From the sequence record HM114315.1: a stretch of DNA of 64,000 nt. One strand, 5' to 3'. This document shows, in pieces, positions 36,103 through 45,662 of the stretch. The stretch's first letter is position 1. Every line of letters starts with the position of its first letter. The translations under genes were made by a program, and so were the position numbers. The stretch is from Acinetobacter phage 133. Below the pieces are notes generated by a model, which searched no databases, was not told where the DNA came from, and saw only the letters and a program-made list of their open reading frames with translations.

Positions 36103-36445
36103 TGATCTTACTCGCTATGTTATTGAATGCTTGATTCAAGATTAATTCCGCTTCCTTGTTATTGGTCTTTTCCACCACCTTCACGACTTCTTTAATTTGC
36201 ACCGTGTTATTGGTATGCTCAATACGATTGGATTGCATTTCAACTTGGACTCGCTGAATATCAGCAAGCTGAGATTGAATCTTGACGACATTTTCATTTG
36301 CCACTTGTACATTGACATTCATTTCTTTAAGCTTGGTCTCCAGGATATCATTTCGATAGTCCTGGATCTTCCACATACCGCCTAAAATAAGAAATGCAAC
36401 GGCCACAATGATGGCAATAATTGCACTAGGTTTTAATTGGATCAC
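36092..36445 (-). CDS. Inner-membrane spanin (i-spanin, Rz-like)
   Basis: N-terminal transmembrane helix plus coiled coil. GTG start with a strong GGAGGA RBS. Confidence 0.6.
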   Translation of the reverse strand: MIQLKPSAIIAIIVAVAFLILGGMWKIQDYRNDILETKLKEMNVNVQVANENVVKIQSQLADIQRVQVEMQSNRIEHTNNTVQIKEVVKVVEKTNNKEAELILNQAFNNIASKINES

Positions 36446-37391
36446 GATACTCCTCCGGGATAAACAGATCTACATTTTTAGTGAATACTTCACTGATGGA
36501 TTCTACTAATGCTTCGGTTGTAATCATTCCATTGAATAAGGACATGAACAGACCAAACAAGTACGGTTTGTTCAATTTAGTTAATTCCGTTTGAGACCCG
36601 ATAGCATAATCTTTACGTGACAAACCGTGGTATTTTTTGTGTAATTCACGGATAACTTTTAAACTGTCCATTAAAAAGTCCAGGAATGTCTTCTCAAACT
36701 TATTGATTTTAGTTAATGAATATTCATCACTGAACAGAGCGCGTACATCATCTAGGACCCCTAGTCGGGCCAACATCATCAGAGCCTTGTTATTGTTCAG
36801 TGACGCTTTAACATTATGCAGTTCACTATACCAATCAGTTTTCACTTTGAAGAACAACCCAGATTGCATTTTGAACACGTAGCCTTCAATGTTTTGCATT
36901 TGATACACGCCTTCTACAAATGCGGATGGATCTTGTCCTTCTTCAATAACATAACCTGGCACTAGGTACTTGCGCAGTACAGGATCCGACTTAAGTTCGT
37001 TGTACGGAACGTAATTACCAGATTCATTTTCACGCACATTTAACAAAATCATGCGGGTATCTTGATAGCCCAATACGACTCGATTATGTGGTGCAACGTA
37101 TTCAAAGTTACATGTGAAACCATCTTCTGCTAATTCTTGTACGCGAAAACGTAGTGCTTCATGGGACCAATCATCCATATATTGGTTCGCCCAGATTGCC
37201 TGATCACTATGGATTGAGGCTTTTGATTTCATGCGCACTCGACCATTGTCCAAATACGTAGAGACTAAAGACCCATCCGCTTTGTCCATGAAGAATTCAA
37301 TCTCATTCATGTCCGGTAATATAACGTCTTTAAAGTTTGAATATAGCGAGTCTAGTCCATGTTCAATCACATAGTCATCAAATTTTGCCAT
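36426..37391 (-). CDS. rnlA: RNA ligase 1 (RnlA), C-terminal two-thirds including the KxDG nucleotidyltransferase motif
   Basis: Aligns with T4 Rnl1 from about residue 85 onward (MDKADGSLVSTYLDNG, AEDGFT.NFE.VAP.NR.VL.YQ, ILLNVRENE.G.Y, NIEGYV, FIPEEY). Own ATG with GGAGAAA RBS. Confidence 0.85.
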   Translation of the reverse strand: MAKFDDYVIEHGLDSLYSNFKDVILPDMNEIEFFMDKADGSLVSTYLDNGRVRMKSKASIHSDQAIWANQYMDDWSHEALRFRVQELAEDGFTCNFEYVAPHNRVVLGYQDTRMILLNVRENESGNYVPYNELKSDPVLRKYLVPGYVIEEGQDPSAFVEGVYQMQNIEGYVFKMQSGLFFKVKTDWYSELHNVKASLNNNKALMMLARLGVLDDVRALFSDEYSLTKINKFEKTFLDFLMDSLKVIRELHKKYHGLSRKDYAIGSQTELTKLNKPYLFGLFMSLFNGMITTEALVESISEVFTKNVDLFIPEEYRDPIKT

Positions 37392-38199
37392 GATATTTCT
37401 CCAATAATTCAGGTATTGACATTTCAGATTTGCCGTGTTTGGCTAAATTGTCGCGCCATGGTATAAATCTTAAATTATGAATACACGCTATTATTTCGGG
37501 GTGTATTCCATTATTAAACCCATCTATGATGGACACGATATGATCCAAGTGATAAGCATTATGATTTCTGCAATGATTATCACGCCGCTCATAAAATGGT
37601 AATTGTGTCAAATCATTTTTATTTGATAACAGTCTAACATCCTTTTGATAACGAGCGTACGATTTTTTATCAAATGATATATGACCATTATCAATACGTC
37701 GTTGTCGGCCATTTCCCAACCACCCAGTATTGACGTTATCACCATACCTAGCACGTATTGTTTTTATGGCTTTTTGCCTGGATTTTGTATAGTCCACTTT
37801 TGATCTGTCACGGGTGGACATTTCGATTGATCGTTTTAAACGTTCAGTTTGTTTCTGTGCAATGTATTCAACGCCGTATTTTTTAACGTTGGTGGCCTTT
37901 ACTTGATTTTGCCAATTGGCGCAACTTGCTCGACATTTAGGAGAGCAATATAAATGGTAGCCCTTTTTAAACCGTTCAAACGTAACTTCATGTCCACAAT
38001 AACAAATTGGACATGAAGTTACGTTATTATTAATGCAATATATAGCCTCAGTTATTGATTTTGACCAAGGACAAAACGACATAAGGTCATCAATAGCAGA
38101 TTGTAAATTATGCTTAACTATATAATCGGGTTTATAAACATATGTATTAATTGAACCCGACTTATTAAGTAAACGAGGGTGGATTTTTGGCTTTATCAT
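37378..38199 (-). mobile_element. Free-standing HNH homing endonuclease gene inserted within rnlA
   Basis: HNH motif HLDHIVSIIDGFNNGIHPEIIACIHNLRFIPWRDN. Zinc-finger-like N-terminus (CPICYCGHE...C). Overlaps both rnlA halves and lies in a different frame. Confidence 0.8.
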
Positions 38200-38503
38200 A
38201 AACTTCCTGGCTTAGTAATCCTTGTGATATTAAAATTTGTGCGAATTCATCAGGTGTTTTTAATTCGGTTAAATTAAAAAATTTGGACATGGGACGGGTC
38301 AAAATTTCAGTTGCAACCCCATCAACCATCTTGAACATAATACCTCGGCATTCAAGTGCAGAAGGTTTCAGCCAATCCGTATATGAAACGAAGTGATAAT
38401 TGAAAATACGGACATTCATGCCCATTGCAGTAGTTTGGTCTTTGAAATAGAACAAGTTTTGATCATCTGCGCATAACGCCATTAATTCATCATAAATTTG
38501 CAT
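38165..38503 (-). CDS. rnlA: RNA ligase 1 (RnlA), N-terminal fragment
   Basis: Aligns with T4 Rnl1 residues 1 to about 85 (MQ.....LMELC, RIF.Y.F.SY.DWL.P.ALECRGIMF, RPM.KFFNL). Then a ~30 aa non-homologous tail and a stop codon. Confidence 0.8.
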   Translation of the reverse strand: MQIYDELMALCADDQNLFYFKDQTTAMGMNVRIFNYHFVSYTDWLKPSALECRGIMFKMVDGVATEILTRPMSKFFNLTELKTPDEFAQILISQGLLSQEVYDKAKNPPSFT

Positions 38504-38796: not shown

Positions 38797-39945
38797 TTAT
38801 CCTTTTTTCGGTAAATATTTTTCGCGGAATTGGGCAATAATATTGTCATCCACGTCTTGATCGATTTGAGAAATTAAGTATGAACTCAATTCTGCTTCTT
38901 GTTTTGCCACCTGAACCGATGACGCCATTAGATATTTATTTACCCATGGCAACGGATGACGTTTAGGTCGTTCAATTGGGCAATTAAGGCCAACATTTTT
39001 CATCGCTGGAACTAATTGATAATCAATGAACTCGTGTACCAAATCAGTAGTTAATCCATCAGGGTGACCATTACGATAAACGTATGTTGCCCATGCACGT
39101 TCTTGTGCGCGTACTTCAAGGAACATTGCTTCAGCTTCTTCTTTACAGTCAAGAGCAATTTCGCGCCATTCTGTACCGTCGATGCCTTTGTTCATTTGTT
39201 GAAGAATATAACGCGTGCCTTGATGATGTAGATTTTCGTCACGTGCAATGAATTGCATGATCTTCATATTACCTTCCATGATCTTCATATTTTCGAAGAA
39301 ATTCCAGGTAGAAATGAATGACACATAGAAACGAATTGCTTCCAAAGCATTAATCGCATGTAAACATAAGTAAAGCGCTTTTTTAACTTCACGCAATTGC
39401 CCAGGCGTTGCAACACCGCGGATTTTGTCGGCCTGGTATAAAATGATTAATTTATGCAATAAATCATATCGTTCACAAATACTCGTTGCACGAGCCATAA
39501 TTTCTTTATTGGCCAATACACCATCAAAGATTTTTGAAGGATCCGAATATAAGTTGCGGATAATATGGGTGTAAGAACGAGAGTGAATTGTCTCAGAGAA
39601 AGTCCAAGTCATAATCCAGGTTTCTAACGCCACATCAGAGCAAATTGAAGCTAGAACAATCGCCGGTGCTCGACCCTGCACAGAGTCCATCAGAATTTGG
39701 TAACCCAGGTTGTCAGTGAAAATTGTCTGAAGATGTCCACGATTGGTTTCCCAGAGCTTATCAAACTGTGCTTTGTCAGTCGTTAGATTGACTTCCTCAG
39801 GACGCCAAAAAAACGAAAGTTGCTTAGTAGTTAGTTCTTCAAATTTTTCGTGTTTGACAATTTCATACCGAGCAACACCAGTGTCATCACCAAAGAACAT
39901 GGGTTGATCAATATTAAATTCGTTTTGATTAAAAATAGTTTGCAT
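38797..39945 (-). CDS. nrdB: Ribonucleotide reductase class Ia beta subunit; continuous, no intron
   Basis: R2 hallmarks (FSETIHSRSYTHI, FYVSF...EGNMKI..FIARDENLH). 382 aa. Confidence 0.9.
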   Translation of the reverse strand: MQTIFNQNEFNIDQPMFFGDDTGVARYEIVKHEKFEELTTKQLSFFWRPEEVNLTTDKAQFDKLWETNRGHLQTIFTDNLGYQILMDSVQGRAPAIVLASICSDVALETWIMTWTFSETIHSRSYTHIIRNLYSDPSKIFDGVLANKEIMARATSICERYDLLHKLIILYQADKIRGVATPGQLREVKKALYLCLHAINALEAIRFYVSFISTWNFFENMKIMEGNMKIMQFIARDENLHHQGTRYILQQMNKGIDGTEWREIALDCKEEAEAMFLEVRAQERAWATYVYRNGHPDGLTTDLVHEFIDYQLVPAMKNVGLNCPIERPKRHPLPWVNKYLMASSVQVAKQEAELSSYLISQIDQDVDDNIIAQFREKYLPKKG

Positions 39946-42730: not shown

Positions 42731-43242
42731 TGATGATATTCTTCTTCAATAACACACGTAGTACCATCGCGATACACCGCATTATTGATCGCATTCAACA
42801 TAACAATTTTATTTAAAAATGCCATGTCCAGACGTTGTGTAACTGGTTTATCTAACGGGGCAACGATACAGGTTTTAAAAACTTTATCTGCAAACGGTAG
42901 AGCCAGTTCAAGAATTTCTTTACCTCCGATGACCGAGTACATATTGTCACGATCTTCAGCCATTGTTTTTAAGCACTCTTTGGCAGCAGATATATTAAAC
43001 CATACGTCTGGTTGATCACCATTCTTTGCACATGGAGCAGAGCGTTCAGGGTTAAGGAAAACTACATGCTGACGACCAGGAAGCTTACATGGAAGACTGG
43101 CGAACGTTTTGGCGCCCATTACAAGTACGGTGCCTTTCGTACGAGCTTTGAAGTTTTTAAAGTCCTGGCTGATGTGAGGCCAAGGCATACCGTCAGCTGC
43201 ACCAAATGCAGAACCTGAATGAGCAAATACTAATTGAATCAT
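42721..43242 (-). CDS. frd: Dihydrofolate reductase
   Basis: DHFR pattern (IQLVFAHS...G.PW, VLVMGAKTF.SLP...PGR.H.V, SVIGG). Confidence 0.85.
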   Translation of the reverse strand: MIQLVFAHSGSAFGAADGMPWPHISQDFKNFKARTKGTVLVMGAKTFASLPCKLPGRQHVVFLNPERSAPCAKNGDQPDVWFNISAAKECLKTMAEDRDNMYSVIGGKEILELALPFADKVFKTCIVAPLDKPVTQRLDMAFLNKIVMLNAINNAVYRDGTTCVIEEEYHQWP

Positions 43243-43688
43243 TTTTCCACCATACGATCTAGTATTGATTTAAGCTGGGTAATTTGAACACCTGCGAGAG
43301 TGATGATTTTACCATCCTGTTCCAAAGCAATTGTTTGCAGTTCTTTACTTGCATTAATGGCAACATCCGTAGACGGGGCCTTGGCAATGCATGTAAGGCC
43401 AGGTTCAACCATAGGGACTCCACTAAGGTCTAAAGTTTCAATCATCAACTCAAGGCGATATTCATCTAGATCACTTGCCGCAAATAGCATATCATGCGTA
43501 ATAACAGTACCCGTTGATTTATGTTTTGCCTTTGTAACCTTCTGATTACGTGGACCTACCTCCAGGACTTCAAACACCTCACCTTCTTGTAAACACTTGT
43601 ATGCAGCCGTTAATGATCGGTTTGTATATGCATCCGACCATTTTGGGGTAAGGCGATAAATTTGACCCACACTGTATATTTTTGTCAT
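43239..43688 (-). CDS. Hypothetical protein
   Basis: 149 aa ORF with ATGA coupling. Confidence 0.4.
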   Translation of the reverse strand: MTKIYSVGQIYRLTPKWSDAYTNRSLTAAYKCLQEGEVFEVLEVGPRNQKVTKAKHKSTGTVITHDMLFAASDLDEYRLELMIETLDLSGVPMVEPGLTCIAKAPSTDVAINASKELQTIALEQDGKIITLAGVQITQLKSILDRMVEK

Positions 43689-43885
43689 TCTAAGATTTCC
43701 TTTAACTGCGCCAGTAGTTCATTGGCCTGATGTTCAGACATAACAATATGCTTGGTGCCCTGGATAAGACTAACTTGTCCGATTGAGGCGCTTGCATTCA
43801 AAGTGATAGCCGGTATTTCTACCGGGTCGCCTGTTCTGTATTGTACTTTATCCAAAGGGATTTTTTTATGAGATAATGATTTCAT
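43685..43885 (-). CDS. Hypothetical small protein
   Basis: 66 aa ORF. Confidence 0.35.
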   Translation of the reverse strand: MKSLSHKKIPLDKVQYRTGDPVEIPAITLNASASIGQVSLIQGTKHIVMSEHQANELLAQLKEILE

Positions 43886-43894
43886 TTATTTTCC

Positions 43895-43902
43895 TCATAA
43901 AT
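43895..43902 (+). promoter_or_regulatory. Late-promoter-like CATAAATA immediately upstream of the GIY-YIG endonuclease gene
   Basis: CATAAATA ends 7 nt before the ATG; T4 I-TevI is expressed late. Confidence 0.4.
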
Positions 43903-43909
43903 AGAAATA

Positions 43910-44737
43910 ATGTTAAACGGGATACCTACTATTATGTCAGCAGGAATATATAAAATACACAATAAATGCACTAACAAATGTTACGTTGGTAGTACGAAAA
44001 ATTTTGAATCTCGTTGGAAACAACATCTTTCAAACTTGCAGAACCAAAAACATTCAAGTATCAAATTGCAACGATCCTATAATAAGCATGGCATTGATGC
44101 ATTTGAGTTTGAAGTTATTGAAGAATTACCATACGAAAGAACGATAATAATTCAGAGAGAAGATTATTGGATATCTCAATTAAACTCCAAACAAAACGGG
44201 TATAATATTGCCGATGCATCCTTTGGGGACCAACTAACTCATCACCCAAATAGATTGGATATTATATCCAGAATAAAGGCCACCTCCATACGTAATATGC
44301 AATCAATGACCACTGAGCAGCGTAAACTTAAATTTGGTCGGCATGGGCCTGATAATGGAATGTACGGTCGAAAACATACCGACTCGACTAAAGAACGTAT
44401 AAGCCAAGCCAATACTGGAAATGAATACAGTAAGGGTAAACTACGTTCAGATCAGACCAAACAGATATTATCAGACATAGCTAAAACCAGAATAGGCGAT
44501 AAAAACCCATTTTACGGGAAGAATCATTCTAATGAAACTAAACGTAAAATTGGTAATGCTAACCTAGGTAATAATCCTGTAAATCGTTTGCAATACTCCA
44601 TATCGGGTAAAATATACAATGGCCTAGATTCGGCTGAGAGAGGCACCGGTATTAAACGAAGTACAATCAGACACCGGTGCCTCTCTCAGAATAAAAAGTA
44701 TGATGAGTACTTTATTATACGGCCATGTCAGCTTTAA
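43910..44737 (+). mobile_element. Free-standing I-TevI-like GIY-YIG homing endonuclease with NUMOD3-like repeats
   Basis: Catalytic domain nearly collinear with I-TevI (SGIYKIHNK..NKCYVGSTKNFESRWKQH, SSIKLQRSYNKHG, EELPYER..IIQREDYWI..LNSK.NGYNIADASFGD...HP). C-terminus carries NUMOD3-type repeats. Opposite strand to the flanking genes; 3-prime end overlaps the td 3-prime end. Confidence 0.85.
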
Positions 44738-45662
44738 TATTTGGATGACTTTCGTATCCAATTAATTTAAAGTCATCCACGGTGGCCTTCTCGAAGTCGT
44801 CTAATGTTTTTAACTCAGGATTAATCCAAAGAGTAGGTAACTTTTTGGGTTCTCTTGATAACTGCTCCAGGCATTGATCAATATGGTTTTTATAAATGTG
44901 AACATTGCCAAACTGACCAATTAGGTAACGAGGTGTTTTACCTAGGATTCGACCGAATACGTGACACAGCTCGGCATAAGAAGCGATATCAAAGGGTTTC
45001 CCCAAGAAAACGTCAACTGACCTCATTAGGAATAGCAAGTCAATATGGCCGTTATTGATATTGATCTGAAACCCGTAATGGCATGGCGGCAAAGTAGGTT
45101 TGTCCTGCTTTACATATTTGTCATCATGGCCCCAAACTGATTTGGGATCCCAGGCAAGAGTCAGCAAACGGCGTGATCCTGGGTTTTTAATTGCTTCATT
45201 GAGCACCGCTTTAATCTGGTCAAACCCGGTTACTTCATACTCATCGTATGATTCGACTTTAGTGTCACCCCGTTCAATTCGAATTGTGCCTTGTCCAAAT
45301 TCGCGCCAAACATTACCATAGACTGGGCCCATATAACCCGCTGTATAACCGAGCTCTTTTTCCGCTTGTTGGTAGTAATTCGCGTCCCAAATTGTTTTCT
45401 TATCCGCATCATATCGCGCGGATTCCCCATGCGTGATTGCACGTAATTCAAATAAATCATTTGACCCACGCAGGAACCACAACATTTCAGCCGTAACTGA
45501 TTTAAAGGCCAAACGCTTTGTGGTCACCGCAGGAAATCCTTTGCGAAGATCAATTTTCAGTTGCTCACCAAATAAAGCAATTGTTCCAACACCAGTACGT
45601 TCATCATCAACGTCTTCGCCATTATCCAATACATTACGCATCAAATCTAAATAACTTTTCAT
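44715..45662 (-). CDS. td: Thymidylate synthase; continuous, no intron
   Basis: Aligns with T4 Td (DRTGTGT.ALFG, GFPAVTTK.LA.K, LPPCH, RSVDVFLG.PFNIASYA, HIY.NH..Q). GGAG RBS. Confidence 0.9.
   Translation of the reverse strand: MKSYLDLMRNVLDNGEDVDDERTGVGTIALFGEQLKIDLRKGFPAVTTKRLAFKSVTAEMLWFLRGSNDLFELRAITHGESARYDADKKTIWDANYYQQAEKELGYTAGYMGPVYGNVWREFGQGTIRIERGDTKVESYDEYEVTGFDQIKAVLNEAIKNPGSRRLLTLAWDPKSVWGHDDKYVKQDKPTLPPCHYGFQININNGHIDLLFLMRSVDVFLGKPFDIASYAELCHVFGRILGKTPRYLIGQFGNVHIYKNHIDQCLEQLSREPKKLPTLWINPELKTLDDFEKATVDDFKLIGYESHPNIKADMAV

Follow-up and report, generated by a model that had tools for sequence, protein, structure and literature searches.

The 64,000-nucleotide stretch of Acinetobacter phage 133 analysed in this study (HM114315.1, referred to as the window) carries a gene for a GIY-YIG endonuclease resembling I-TevI, the textbook intron-borne homing endonuclease. 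The gene lies beside the thymidylate synthase-like gene td and not within it. Taken as a whole, the findings are best explained by an active, free-standing enzyme of the I-TevI lineage that homes into td without an intron, which we regard as probable from the sequence comparisons. Recent mobility of the element appears very likely on these comparisons, and the td segment equivalent to the I-TevI cleavage site is its likely target. An earlier note, made from the letters of this DNA alone, had proposed intron-less homing, and the comparative evidence fits this idea through empty sites, a td allele differing exactly where I-TevI binds, recombination junctions and footprints.

The presence of the endonuclease gene was polymorphic among close relatives. 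When proteins were clustered at 90% identity, the cluster of the phage 133 Td contained 11 members and that of the endonuclease only 4. Five metagenomic 133-like contigs (L102-L106), originating from at least four samples, lacked the endonuclease and had gp32, two open reading frames (ORFs), td, a 65-aa ORF, a 149-aa ORF, frd, DUF4326 and nrdA in the same order as phage 133. The insert of phage 133 corresponded to an exact gap in these contigs (Table 1), and at the empty site the td stop codon overlapped the start codon of the next gene (TAATG).

The td alleles were compared among eight genes of 948 nt each, which aligned without gaps; three were from carriers of the endonuclease gene (phage 133 and the contigs L089 and L107) and five from the non-carriers L102-L106. 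From nt 663 to the stop codon, all three carriers had one allele (95-100% identical in 60-nt windows), and 5/5 non-carriers had another, which was 53-90% identical to the carrier allele in the same windows. The endonuclease gene and the 3' allele of td were perfectly associated in the 133 group (8/8 genomes). The preceding segment, nt 613-662, was identical in all eight genes, and the alleles upstream of nt 612 did not track the endonuclease status. In this upstream part L089 was of the non-carrier type (98-100% identical), and phage 133 and L107 shared another type. A three-way count of informative sites located the switch of L089 from the endonuclease-less type to the 133 type between 45051 and 45000, an interval that brackets the cleavage-site equivalent near 45022, and a second switch back between 43359 and 43153. 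As a separate observation, the td gene of L107 (5806..6753, minus strand) contained a non-carrier patch at approximately nt 520-612, just upstream of the cleavage-site equivalent, in an otherwise phage 133-type sequence; this patch could be either a short conversion on the exon-I side or an artefact of assembling a strain mixture.

I-TevI cuts T4 td at CAA CG^C TCA, and the equivalent of this site in phage 133 was located by alignment with this sequence. The divergence between carrier and non-carrier alleles began exactly at Gly221|Lys222, the boundary that matches the intron insertion site of T4, with 14 substitutions in 46 nt, almost all of which were at wobble positions. The DNA-binding domain of I-TevI sits on the segment at the insertion site, and its nuclease domain reaches upstream. 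The allele pattern fits an I-TevI-like geometry in which the resident td would escape through a recoded binding site. The earlier note had held that the resident td must be resistant and had pointed to the insertion-site equivalent as the place for a divergent sequence. Inspection there indeed found a divergent sequence from nt 663 onward, while the cleavage-site equivalent itself was identical in carriers and non-carriers. Any resistance of td must therefore lie in the downstream binding region. The I-TevI cleavage motif CNNNG at the cleavage-site equivalent was also considered as a difference between carriers and non-carriers and was rejected, as it was present in td genes of the Asn type and absent in those of the Asp type (defined below) regardless of the endonuclease status.

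Pairs of cultured phages, which are not open to the objection of contig chimerism, revealed further junctions in td. Apostate (carrier) and Lazarus (non-carrier) were 96-98% identical in the flanks; their td genes were about 99% identical up to nt 630 and then only about 65-70%, with the Arg codon at nt 640, and homology returned at the start of nrdA. The junction region of this pair was not especially conserved at the DNA level. Between PhT2 and Maestro, dense divergence in td started from nt 642, with the Arg codon at nt 643. AbTZA1, which has an endonuclease gene in place of nrdA.1, differed from Maestro in the 3' half of td only at nt 639, 642 and 900-901, the first two being within the two codons just before the Arg codon. 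Junctions were found within 30 nt of the pre-specified site in 5/6 cases, where chance would give about 7% each (td taken as about 900 nt); as the events may not be independent and the site is conserved, this tally is supportive and should not be read as a probability.

Leftover ends of td provided another kind of footprint. L097 (826..2919), one of two more distant relatives, contained a complete Asp-type td, an antisense endonuclease gene (56% identical to that of phage 133 at the protein level) and then a 102-aa td fragment, whose homology started at "A GTT GAT", 5-6 nt beyond the cleavage-site equivalent. In L100 (3055..5124), a complete td was followed by an endonuclease gene on the same strand (52% identical) and a 96-aa td fragment with upstream homology, whose first codon, immediately following the stop codon of the endonuclease gene, was the Arg codon. 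The new and leftover td thirds of L097 and L100 were 68% and 74% identical in DNA. Such duplications would be expected from a break at the cleavage-site equivalent after homologous repair of one end and homology-independent joining of the other. PhT2 (L095, 1734..1778) retained the last 14 codons and the stop codon of an older td upstream of the endonuclease promoter. No td fragment was found near the phage 133 endonuclease gene in the window.

The identity of the protein as an I-TevI-type endonuclease is virtually certain. The ORF at 43910..44737 (+) was confirmed in the window with a length of 275 aa, and an in-frame ATG at 43934 gives 267 aa. The shorter form corresponded to YP_004300817.1 of phage 133, annotated as "putative I-TevI-like homing endonuclease GIY-YIG family", and an exact look-up of the 275-aa form returned no record. 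The motif MxSGIY opens the consensus of 55 aligned homologues at the position of ATG 43934, and 8/8 relatives examined start there; together with the I-TevI alignment, this makes ATG 43934 almost certainly the true start. As the gene has already been annotated in phage 133 and mentioned in print, its existence and naming are not new.

Pfam searches of the 275-aa sequence detected a GIY-YIG domain (E 5e-14) and three NUMOD3 stretches (E 6e-14). The protein also matched PHROG 314 "homing endonuclease" (E 3e-50) and passed NCBIfam TIGR01453 'group I intron endonuclease' with 133 bits against a cut-off of 56. Residues 1-97 of I-TevI aligned to residues 9-106 in the 275-aa numbering (E 3e-35; about 60% identity). 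This alignment of the catalytic domain had been set beforehand as a test, and every catalytic residue was intact: Y6, Y17, R27, H31, H40, E76 and N91 (267-aa numbering), the counterparts of Y6, Y17, R27, H31, H40, E75 and N90 in I-TevI, were invariant in the 55 homologues. Since the lineages are only 47-57% identical, this invariance argues for selection for nuclease activity. The Pfam model SegE_GIY-YIG scored E 0.069 and 13.8 bits, below its cut-off of 25. The protein thus belongs with the GIY-YIG enzymes of the I-TevI type; it is neither I-TevI proper, as it is without intron and zinc finger, nor of the Seg type by domain subtype.

An AlphaFold model built from the 55-sequence alignment had a mean pLDDT of 87.5, with a low-confidence linker at residues 94-98. 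Helices were modelled at residues 150-159, 173-184 and 200-210 in the NUMOD3 region, and the C-terminal unit was modelled as beta-beta-helix-turn-helix-beta with pLDDT above 90. In Foldseek searches against the Protein Data Bank (PDB), the nuclease domain matched the I-TevI catalytic domain (1mk0/1ln0, E 1e-11, rmsd 0.6-3.0 A), and the DNA-binding part matched the DNA-bound I-TevI DNA-binding domain (1i3j, E 4e-4, TM 0.69, 83 columns), which was also hit by a sequence search (E 8e-4). The minor-groove helix and the helix-turn-helix of the I-TevI type are thus retained. The NUMOD3 repeats occupy the place of the zinc finger and the single NUMOD3-like helix of I-TevI. A four-Cys zinc finger was absent, with no match to Pfam I-TevI_ZnF and only C249 and C265 as cysteines after position 100, and all of the free-standing relatives compared also lacked it. 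For the DNA-binding part, the earlier note was right about the NUMOD3 repeats and the missing zinc finger; its claim that the helix-turn-helix was missing too was contradicted by the matches to 1i3j in both sequence and fold. In I-TevI, the spacing of binding site and cut is determined by the zinc finger, so this spacing may differ in the phage 133 enzyme.

The td-like gene was uninterrupted, as the earlier note had stated: it was a single ORF of 315 aa that covered the full Pfam model and aligned with T4 Td from end to end. The 3' ends of the two convergent genes overlapped by 23 nt as described there, with the last seven sense codons and the stop codon of the endonuclease gene opposed to the last six sense codons, the stop codon and 2 nt of the preceding codon of td. 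The other gene claimed to be intron-less, nrdB (38797..39945), was likewise a single ORF (382 aa). The endonuclease gene is located outside td on the opposite strand, with 48 nt between it and the next ORF. Rfam searches for a group I intron or a ribozyme remnant gave only noise at the gathering threshold and at E ≤ 1, the best being an 18-bit Intron_gpI match over the DUF4326 ORF (E 0.62); this negative is weak evidence because the annotated td intron of Salmonella phage CGG4-1 was also missed at the gathering threshold. The annotated intron at that locus (L003, 3333..5205) contains an I-TevI homologue, so Rfam negatives for td introns that harbour an ORF call for caution.

The association of such enzymes with td was not restricted to phage 133. 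The best tblastn matches (44-56% identity) were free-standing genes convergent with td, found in the Acinetobacter phages Apostate, Octan, Meroveus and Kimel, all with the same 23-nt overlap, and in PhT2, Ac42, AbTZA1 and Yersinia phage phiR1-RT; a metagenomic Ac42-like contig (L099) had the same layout. The intron-borne homologues of Salmonella, Klebsiella and Escherichia phages were slightly more distant (40-43% identity). As the free-standing lineages were mutually only 47-57% identical, the association with td is old. Members with and without the endonuclease gene occurred side by side in Lazarusvirus, Hadassahvirus and Tegunavirus. Treating the arrangement as peculiar to phage 133 is not supported, as it recurs in several phage genera. 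A search of IMG/VR using the protein found only relatives with identities of 45% or less. Megablast with the locus and with an 8-kb structural region detected no near DNA relative in the phage collection searched, which does not contain phage 133; this phage is T4-like, and its NrdA was 80% identical to that of Acinetobacter phage Acj9. Two candidate origins were rejected: the 3' third of the phage 133 td did not derive from the Apostate or PhT2 cassettes, being closest to endonuclease-less Asp-type genes, and the cassettes of Apostate and PhT2 did not represent a recent cross-genus transfer, as their identity of 70-75% was similar to the background.

From these observations we propose the following course of events. 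Expression of the enzyme would probably be late and driven by a T4-type late promoter, the early td-frd-nrd transcription unit being on the other strand. When a cell is co-infected by a relative that lacks the endonuclease, the C-terminal NUMOD3/helix-turn-helix module of the enzyme would bind the td segment encoding G-x-P-F-D/N-I-A-S-Y, the counterpart of the sequence that I-TevI binds at the intron insertion site of T4. The tethered nuclease domain would then cut within or beside the conserved (Q/M)-R-S codons, some 20-25 nt upstream, and repair of the break from the carrier genome would copy the 3' third of td, the endonuclease gene and a variable stretch beyond. An intron would not be required for this, since the element is situated immediately after the td stop codon, with which it overlaps. 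The carrier td would be protected by the co-inherited 3' third, which is heavily substituted at wobble positions from the insertion-site equivalent onward. The mosaic alleles may also reflect localized marker exclusion around td.

Several observations weigh against this interpretation. The motif CNNNG was absent at the cleavage-site equivalent in every Asp-type td, whether or not an endonuclease was carried, and the enzyme would therefore need a different motif or a slightly different cut position. The recognition helix of its helix-turn-helix (RSTIRHRCLS) differs from that of I-TevI, so that the sequence bound may also differ. The patchwork of L089 and L107, both of them metagenome (Logan) contigs, may in part be an artefact of assembling strain mixtures. 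The pair phiR1-RT and TG1 was an exception among the junctions: the main junction was located at about td nt 700, about 175 nt further downstream, and nt 555-573 contained a small cluster of differences. The long tract in the present case runs through the exon II side. In addition, the most conserved td segment ends at the junction, and ordinary recombination of diverged alleles might also be favoured at such a place; the L089 event alone fits equally well a cut at the empty-site junction followed by two-way resection.

The last point leads to the strongest alternative, in which the endonuclease is mobile and cuts at or near its own insertion point (the TAATG junction) or in the downstream ORFs, the junctions in td being the ends of resection tracts. 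The tract of L089, extending about 290-340 nt into td and about 530-730 nt in the other direction from the insertion point, is compatible with two-sided resection. SegG and SegF are free-standing T4 endonucleases that cut some distance from their own genes, and the missing CNNNG motif also favours a cut outside td. Against this, Apostate/Lazarus and PhT2/Maestro, which differ in their insertion points and far-side junctions, have independent td junctions that fell no more than about 10 nt from the same codons. Leftover td thirds beginning at the Arg/Ser codons, as in L097 and L100, would not be produced by a cut at the td stop codon, and the wobble-saturated divergence starts exactly at the insertion-site equivalent. 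We consider this alternative unlikely.

Less probable still is that the mosaic td alleles arose by ordinary homologous recombination in conserved active-site sequence, with the endonuclease as a passive and perhaps inactive passenger. T4-like phages recombine very frequently, the identical nt 613-662 of the 133-like alleles would be a convenient crossover site, and the metagenome contigs may be chimeric. A passenger would nevertheless hardly keep its catalytic residues invariant across such diverged lineages or remain associated with one td 3' allele in 8/8 genomes; the Apostate/Lazarus junction lies in DNA that is not especially conserved, and the duplications in L097 and L100 indicate end-joining at a break and not a reciprocal crossover.

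The protein might instead be domesticated, serving mainly as a DNA-binding regulator or in attacks on host DNA or competing phages, without propagating itself. Edgell et al. in 2004 reportedly described I-TevI as a transcriptional autorepressor. This additional role of I-TevI (PMC12774661) counts for domestication, as does the integration of the element into the operon through the ribosome-binding site that it provides for the 66-aa ORF downstream. It is a very improbable explanation, as the presence/absence polymorphism in near-identical genomes with a linked converted tract is the signature of a mobile element, and no operator of the I-TevI style was indicated by the similarity between the predicted target and the endonuclease promoter, which was not significant (122/500 shuffles scored as well).

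Table 1. Positions of the endonuclease gene, td and associated features in the window
Feature	Position	Strand	Remark
Homing endonuclease gene, 267 aa	43934..44737	+	Identical to YP_004300817.1; 275 aa if started at the upstream in-frame ATG 43910
GIY-YIG nuclease domain, residues 1-97	43934..44224	+	About 60% identical to I-TevI 1-97; Foldseek 1mk0/1ln0
Three NUMOD3 repeats, about residues 138-212, linker/DNA-binding region	44345..44569	+	Pfam and model helices; boundaries approximate
C-terminal helix-turn-helix subdomain, about residues 217-262, I-TevI DNA-binding type	44582..44719	+	PDB 1i3j matches
Late-promoter-like box CATAAATA	43896..43903	+	30 nt upstream of start codon
829-nt insert absent from L102-L106	43886..44714		Exact gap in endonuclease-less genomes
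Uninterrupted td-like gene, 315 aa	44715..45662	-	Pfam Thymidylat_synt positions 1-266 of 266; T4 Td end to end
Antiparallel overlap of endonuclease gene and td, 23 nt	44715..44737		Same 23-nt overlap in Apostate
Codons Met213-Arg214-Ser215, I-TevI cleavage-site equivalent	45018..45026	-	Alignment to T4 td CAA CG^C TCA; predicted cut by the phage 133 enzyme
td nt 663-708, from T4 intron insertion-site equivalent (Gly221|Lys222)	44955..45000	-	14 substitutions vs endonuclease-less alleles; predicted binding/immunity region
Core of tract shared with L089, about 99% identity	43359..45000		Most of 149-aa ORF, 66-aa ORF, endonuclease gene, td 3' third; outer limits 43154 and 45050
Perfect 17-bp inverted repeat, 22-nt spacer	44634..44689 (arms 44634..44650, 44673..44689)		Inside sequence coding for helix-turn-helix
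Two small ORFs, function unassigned (149 aa, 43239..43688; 66 aa, 43685..43885)	43239..43885	-	In carriers and non-carriers, inside shared tract

The late-promoter-like sequence reported upstream of the endonuclease gene was present, and its position was conserved in the family. A (T/C/A)ATAAATA box was found 22-31 nt upstream of the start codon in 9/9 members examined (133, L089, Apostate, PhT2, Ac42, AbTZA1, phiR1-RT, T4 I-TevI and the intron-borne enzyme of Salmonella phage CGG4-1). The number of CATAAATA occurrences in the window was not above chance. The box also preceded plus-strand ORFs at 1669, 4542 and 58387, and both TATAAATA and CATAAATA occurred directly upstream of plus-strand (late-type) ORFs in the window. 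Based on this placement and the conservation in the family, late expression from the box is a reasonable assumption. On the minus strand, the insert provides the 66-aa ORF with a ribosome-binding site, GAGG, located 8 nt before its start codon (43883..43905), and this site replaces the TAATG stop/start coupling of the empty site. The bases of this site are the complement of the CCTCATAAATA promoter box, and the overlap may explain the non-canonical first C of the latter.

The 17-bp inverted repeat starts 25 nt past the td stop codon on the td transcript, and a 101-nt RNA containing it was predicted to fold with -41.7 kcal/mol (z = -7). No U-run followed it on either strand. The repeat may be a 3' stabiliser or processing signal of the td mRNA, or a barrier between the convergent transcripts. 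Imperfect inverted repeats were also observed near the 3' ends of the homologous genes of Ac42, phiR1-RT, AbTZA1 and Apostate. A smaller perfect repeat of 11 bp with a 16-nt spacer (44742..44752 and 44769..44779) lies in the last 20 td codons, just past the end of the endonuclease gene.

The gene that the element adjoins, whose product is 100% identical to the annotated "Td thymidylate synthase" of phage 133 and which was taken as such in the earlier note, is probably not a thymidylate synthase. The ThyA fold with the catalytic Cys146, Arg166, Asp169, His207 and Tyr209 and the folate-closing C-terminus was present, and the thymidylate synthase residues R21, E58, W80, Y94, R126, R127, L143, C146, H147, R166, S167, D169, H207 and Y209 were kept. 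The phage 133 Td reads LFLMRSVDVFLGKPFDIASY, and two exceptions were found on the minus strand: Met213 (45026..45024) in place of Gln165 and Asp225 (44990..44988) in place of Asn177. T4 dCMP hydroxymethylase has the same two residues, Asp and Met. The replacement of Asn177 by Asp switches the substrate from dUMP to dCMP (PMC8670742; PMC13326640), and the retention of Leu143 and Asp169 predicts a methyl, and not a hydroxymethyl or hydroxy, product (PMC13326640). The Asp-type signature occurred in 9/120 nearest homologues, and every Asp case also had Met. Both substitutions were considered as immunity mutations tied to the endonuclease and rejected; endonuclease-less genes share them, so the Asp-type td is not an immunity variant.

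On balance, these residues favour a dCMP 5-methyltransferase as the product of the phage 133 td. The td gene of phage ZZ1 is also of the Asp/Met type. A 2021 study described 133 and ZZ1 as phages without a known enzyme for the synthesis of a non-canonical base, which yet keep DenB, Alc and dCTPase (PMC8056088). Alc is encoded in the window, and no gp42-like sequence was found there. As a side observation, 133 and ZZ1, both of the Asp/Met type, are the two Acinetobacter T4-like phages reported without gene 42 but with Alc, DenB and dCTPase. We tentatively suggest from the sequences a wider scenario, itself somewhat less likely than its contrary, in which a td-derived dCMP 5-methyltransferase lets phages 133 and ZZ1 replace cytosine with 5-methylcytosine and the endonuclease homes into the segment for the specificity residues. 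If true, 5-methylcytosine DNA would explain why Alc, DenB and dCTPase are kept without gene 42. Met213 and Asp225 being in or next to the converted tract, homing would target the segment encoding both specificity residues; the endonuclease would work on fully C5-modified DNA and could in principle carry base-modification specificity between phages. The Asp-type td is a candidate for the base-modification enzyme of 133 and ZZ1 that was not found in the 2021 study, and this may be the more useful lead.

As for the neighbouring genes, the order in phage 133 (42383..47781) is gp32, two ORFs, td, endonuclease, 66-aa ORF, 149-aa ORF, frd, nrdA.1 and nrdA. Here td is upstream of frd, and frd is upstream of td in T4, Acj9, Lazarus, ZZ1, Ac42 and the Asp-type contig L090. 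The swapped order was also found in the 133-like contigs that lack the endonuclease and is therefore either older than the endonuclease or unconnected with it. Elsewhere in the window, the RNA ligase 1 gene rnlA was split (36426..38503, minus strand) into ORFs for the N-terminal part (112 aa, 38165..38503) and the C-terminal part (321 aa, 36426..37391), the split point being just before the KxDG adenylation motif. The 273-aa ORF between the halves (37378..38199) had an HNH-like motif (YHLDHIV...HNL) and a weak match to a PHROG 'homing endonuclease' (E 5e-7). In L089, rnlA was intact (382 aa), and about 957 nt were absent at this place relative to phage 133.

The element is of a known kind, and the advance is incremental, as the gene had already been annotated and intron-less homing is an established type of mechanism. 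I-BmoI, encoded in the thyA intron of Bacillus mojavensis, is a GIY-YIG enzyme with NUMOD-type DNA-binding modules and no zinc finger of the I-TevI type, and it targets the same conserved thymidylate synthase sequence. It is an isoschizomer of I-TevI (PMC12774661). Its likeness to the phage 133 enzyme is by description and not by sequence, and I-BmoI is bacterial and intron-encoded, unlike the free-standing phage 133 enzyme. In the mitochondrial atp6 of Allomyces macrogynus, according to what Paquin, Laforest and Lang reportedly described in 1994, a GIY-YIG ORF brought a foreign 3' end and left the old end downstream. L097, L100 and PhT2 resemble this case in keeping old td ends, whereas the Allomyces ORF was mitochondrial and fused in frame, and phage 133 itself has no remnant. 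The free-standing T-even endonucleases SegF, SegG, SegB, SegH, MobE and Hef spread through double-strand breaks in the DNA of endonuclease-less relatives, with co-conversion of flanking markers (PMC2988022); this is known as 'intron-less homing'. The phage 133 gene likewise stands free between phage genes, but the Seg enzymes belong to another GIY-YIG subtype, and none of these endonucleases is an I-TevI orthologue or has been reported beside td.

F-CphI (cyanophage psbA) and F-TslI (T7-like DNA polymerase) are free-standing enzymes beside an intron-less gene copy and target the intron insertion region (PMC2988022; PMC6083498). Such 'collaborative homing' endonucleases were proposed as precursors of mobile introns, being "pre-adapted" free-standing enzymes (PMC2988022). 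The phage 133 enzyme shares with them the position beside an intron-less copy of a gene that bears an intron in relatives; F-CphI and F-TslI belong to other nuclease families and act on other genes, whereas the phage 133 enzyme is a true homologue of the intron-borne one.

The closest comparison is with I-TevI itself. The two enzymes have nuclease domains that are about 60% identical with all catalytic residues, the same layout of nuclease, linker, minor-groove helix and helix-turn-helix, an ATAAATA-type box upstream of the start codon, and probably targets in the same td codons. In contrast to I-TevI, the phage 133 enzyme is not encoded in an intron but immediately beyond the td stop codon on the other strand, lacks the zinc finger, has two additional NUMOD3 repeats and a different recognition helix, and is longer (267 vs 245 aa). 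This zinc-finger-less variant of the I-TevI nuclease and linker could interest builders of Tev-based genome editors, and the phage 133 td allele and the endonuclease-less L104 allele form a testable substrate pair. Self-protection would also be achieved differently, by the substituted 3' third of td in phage 133 and by the intron-split site for I-TevI; carrying a recoded copy of the 3' third of the target gene would represent a second solution to the problem of self-cleavage.

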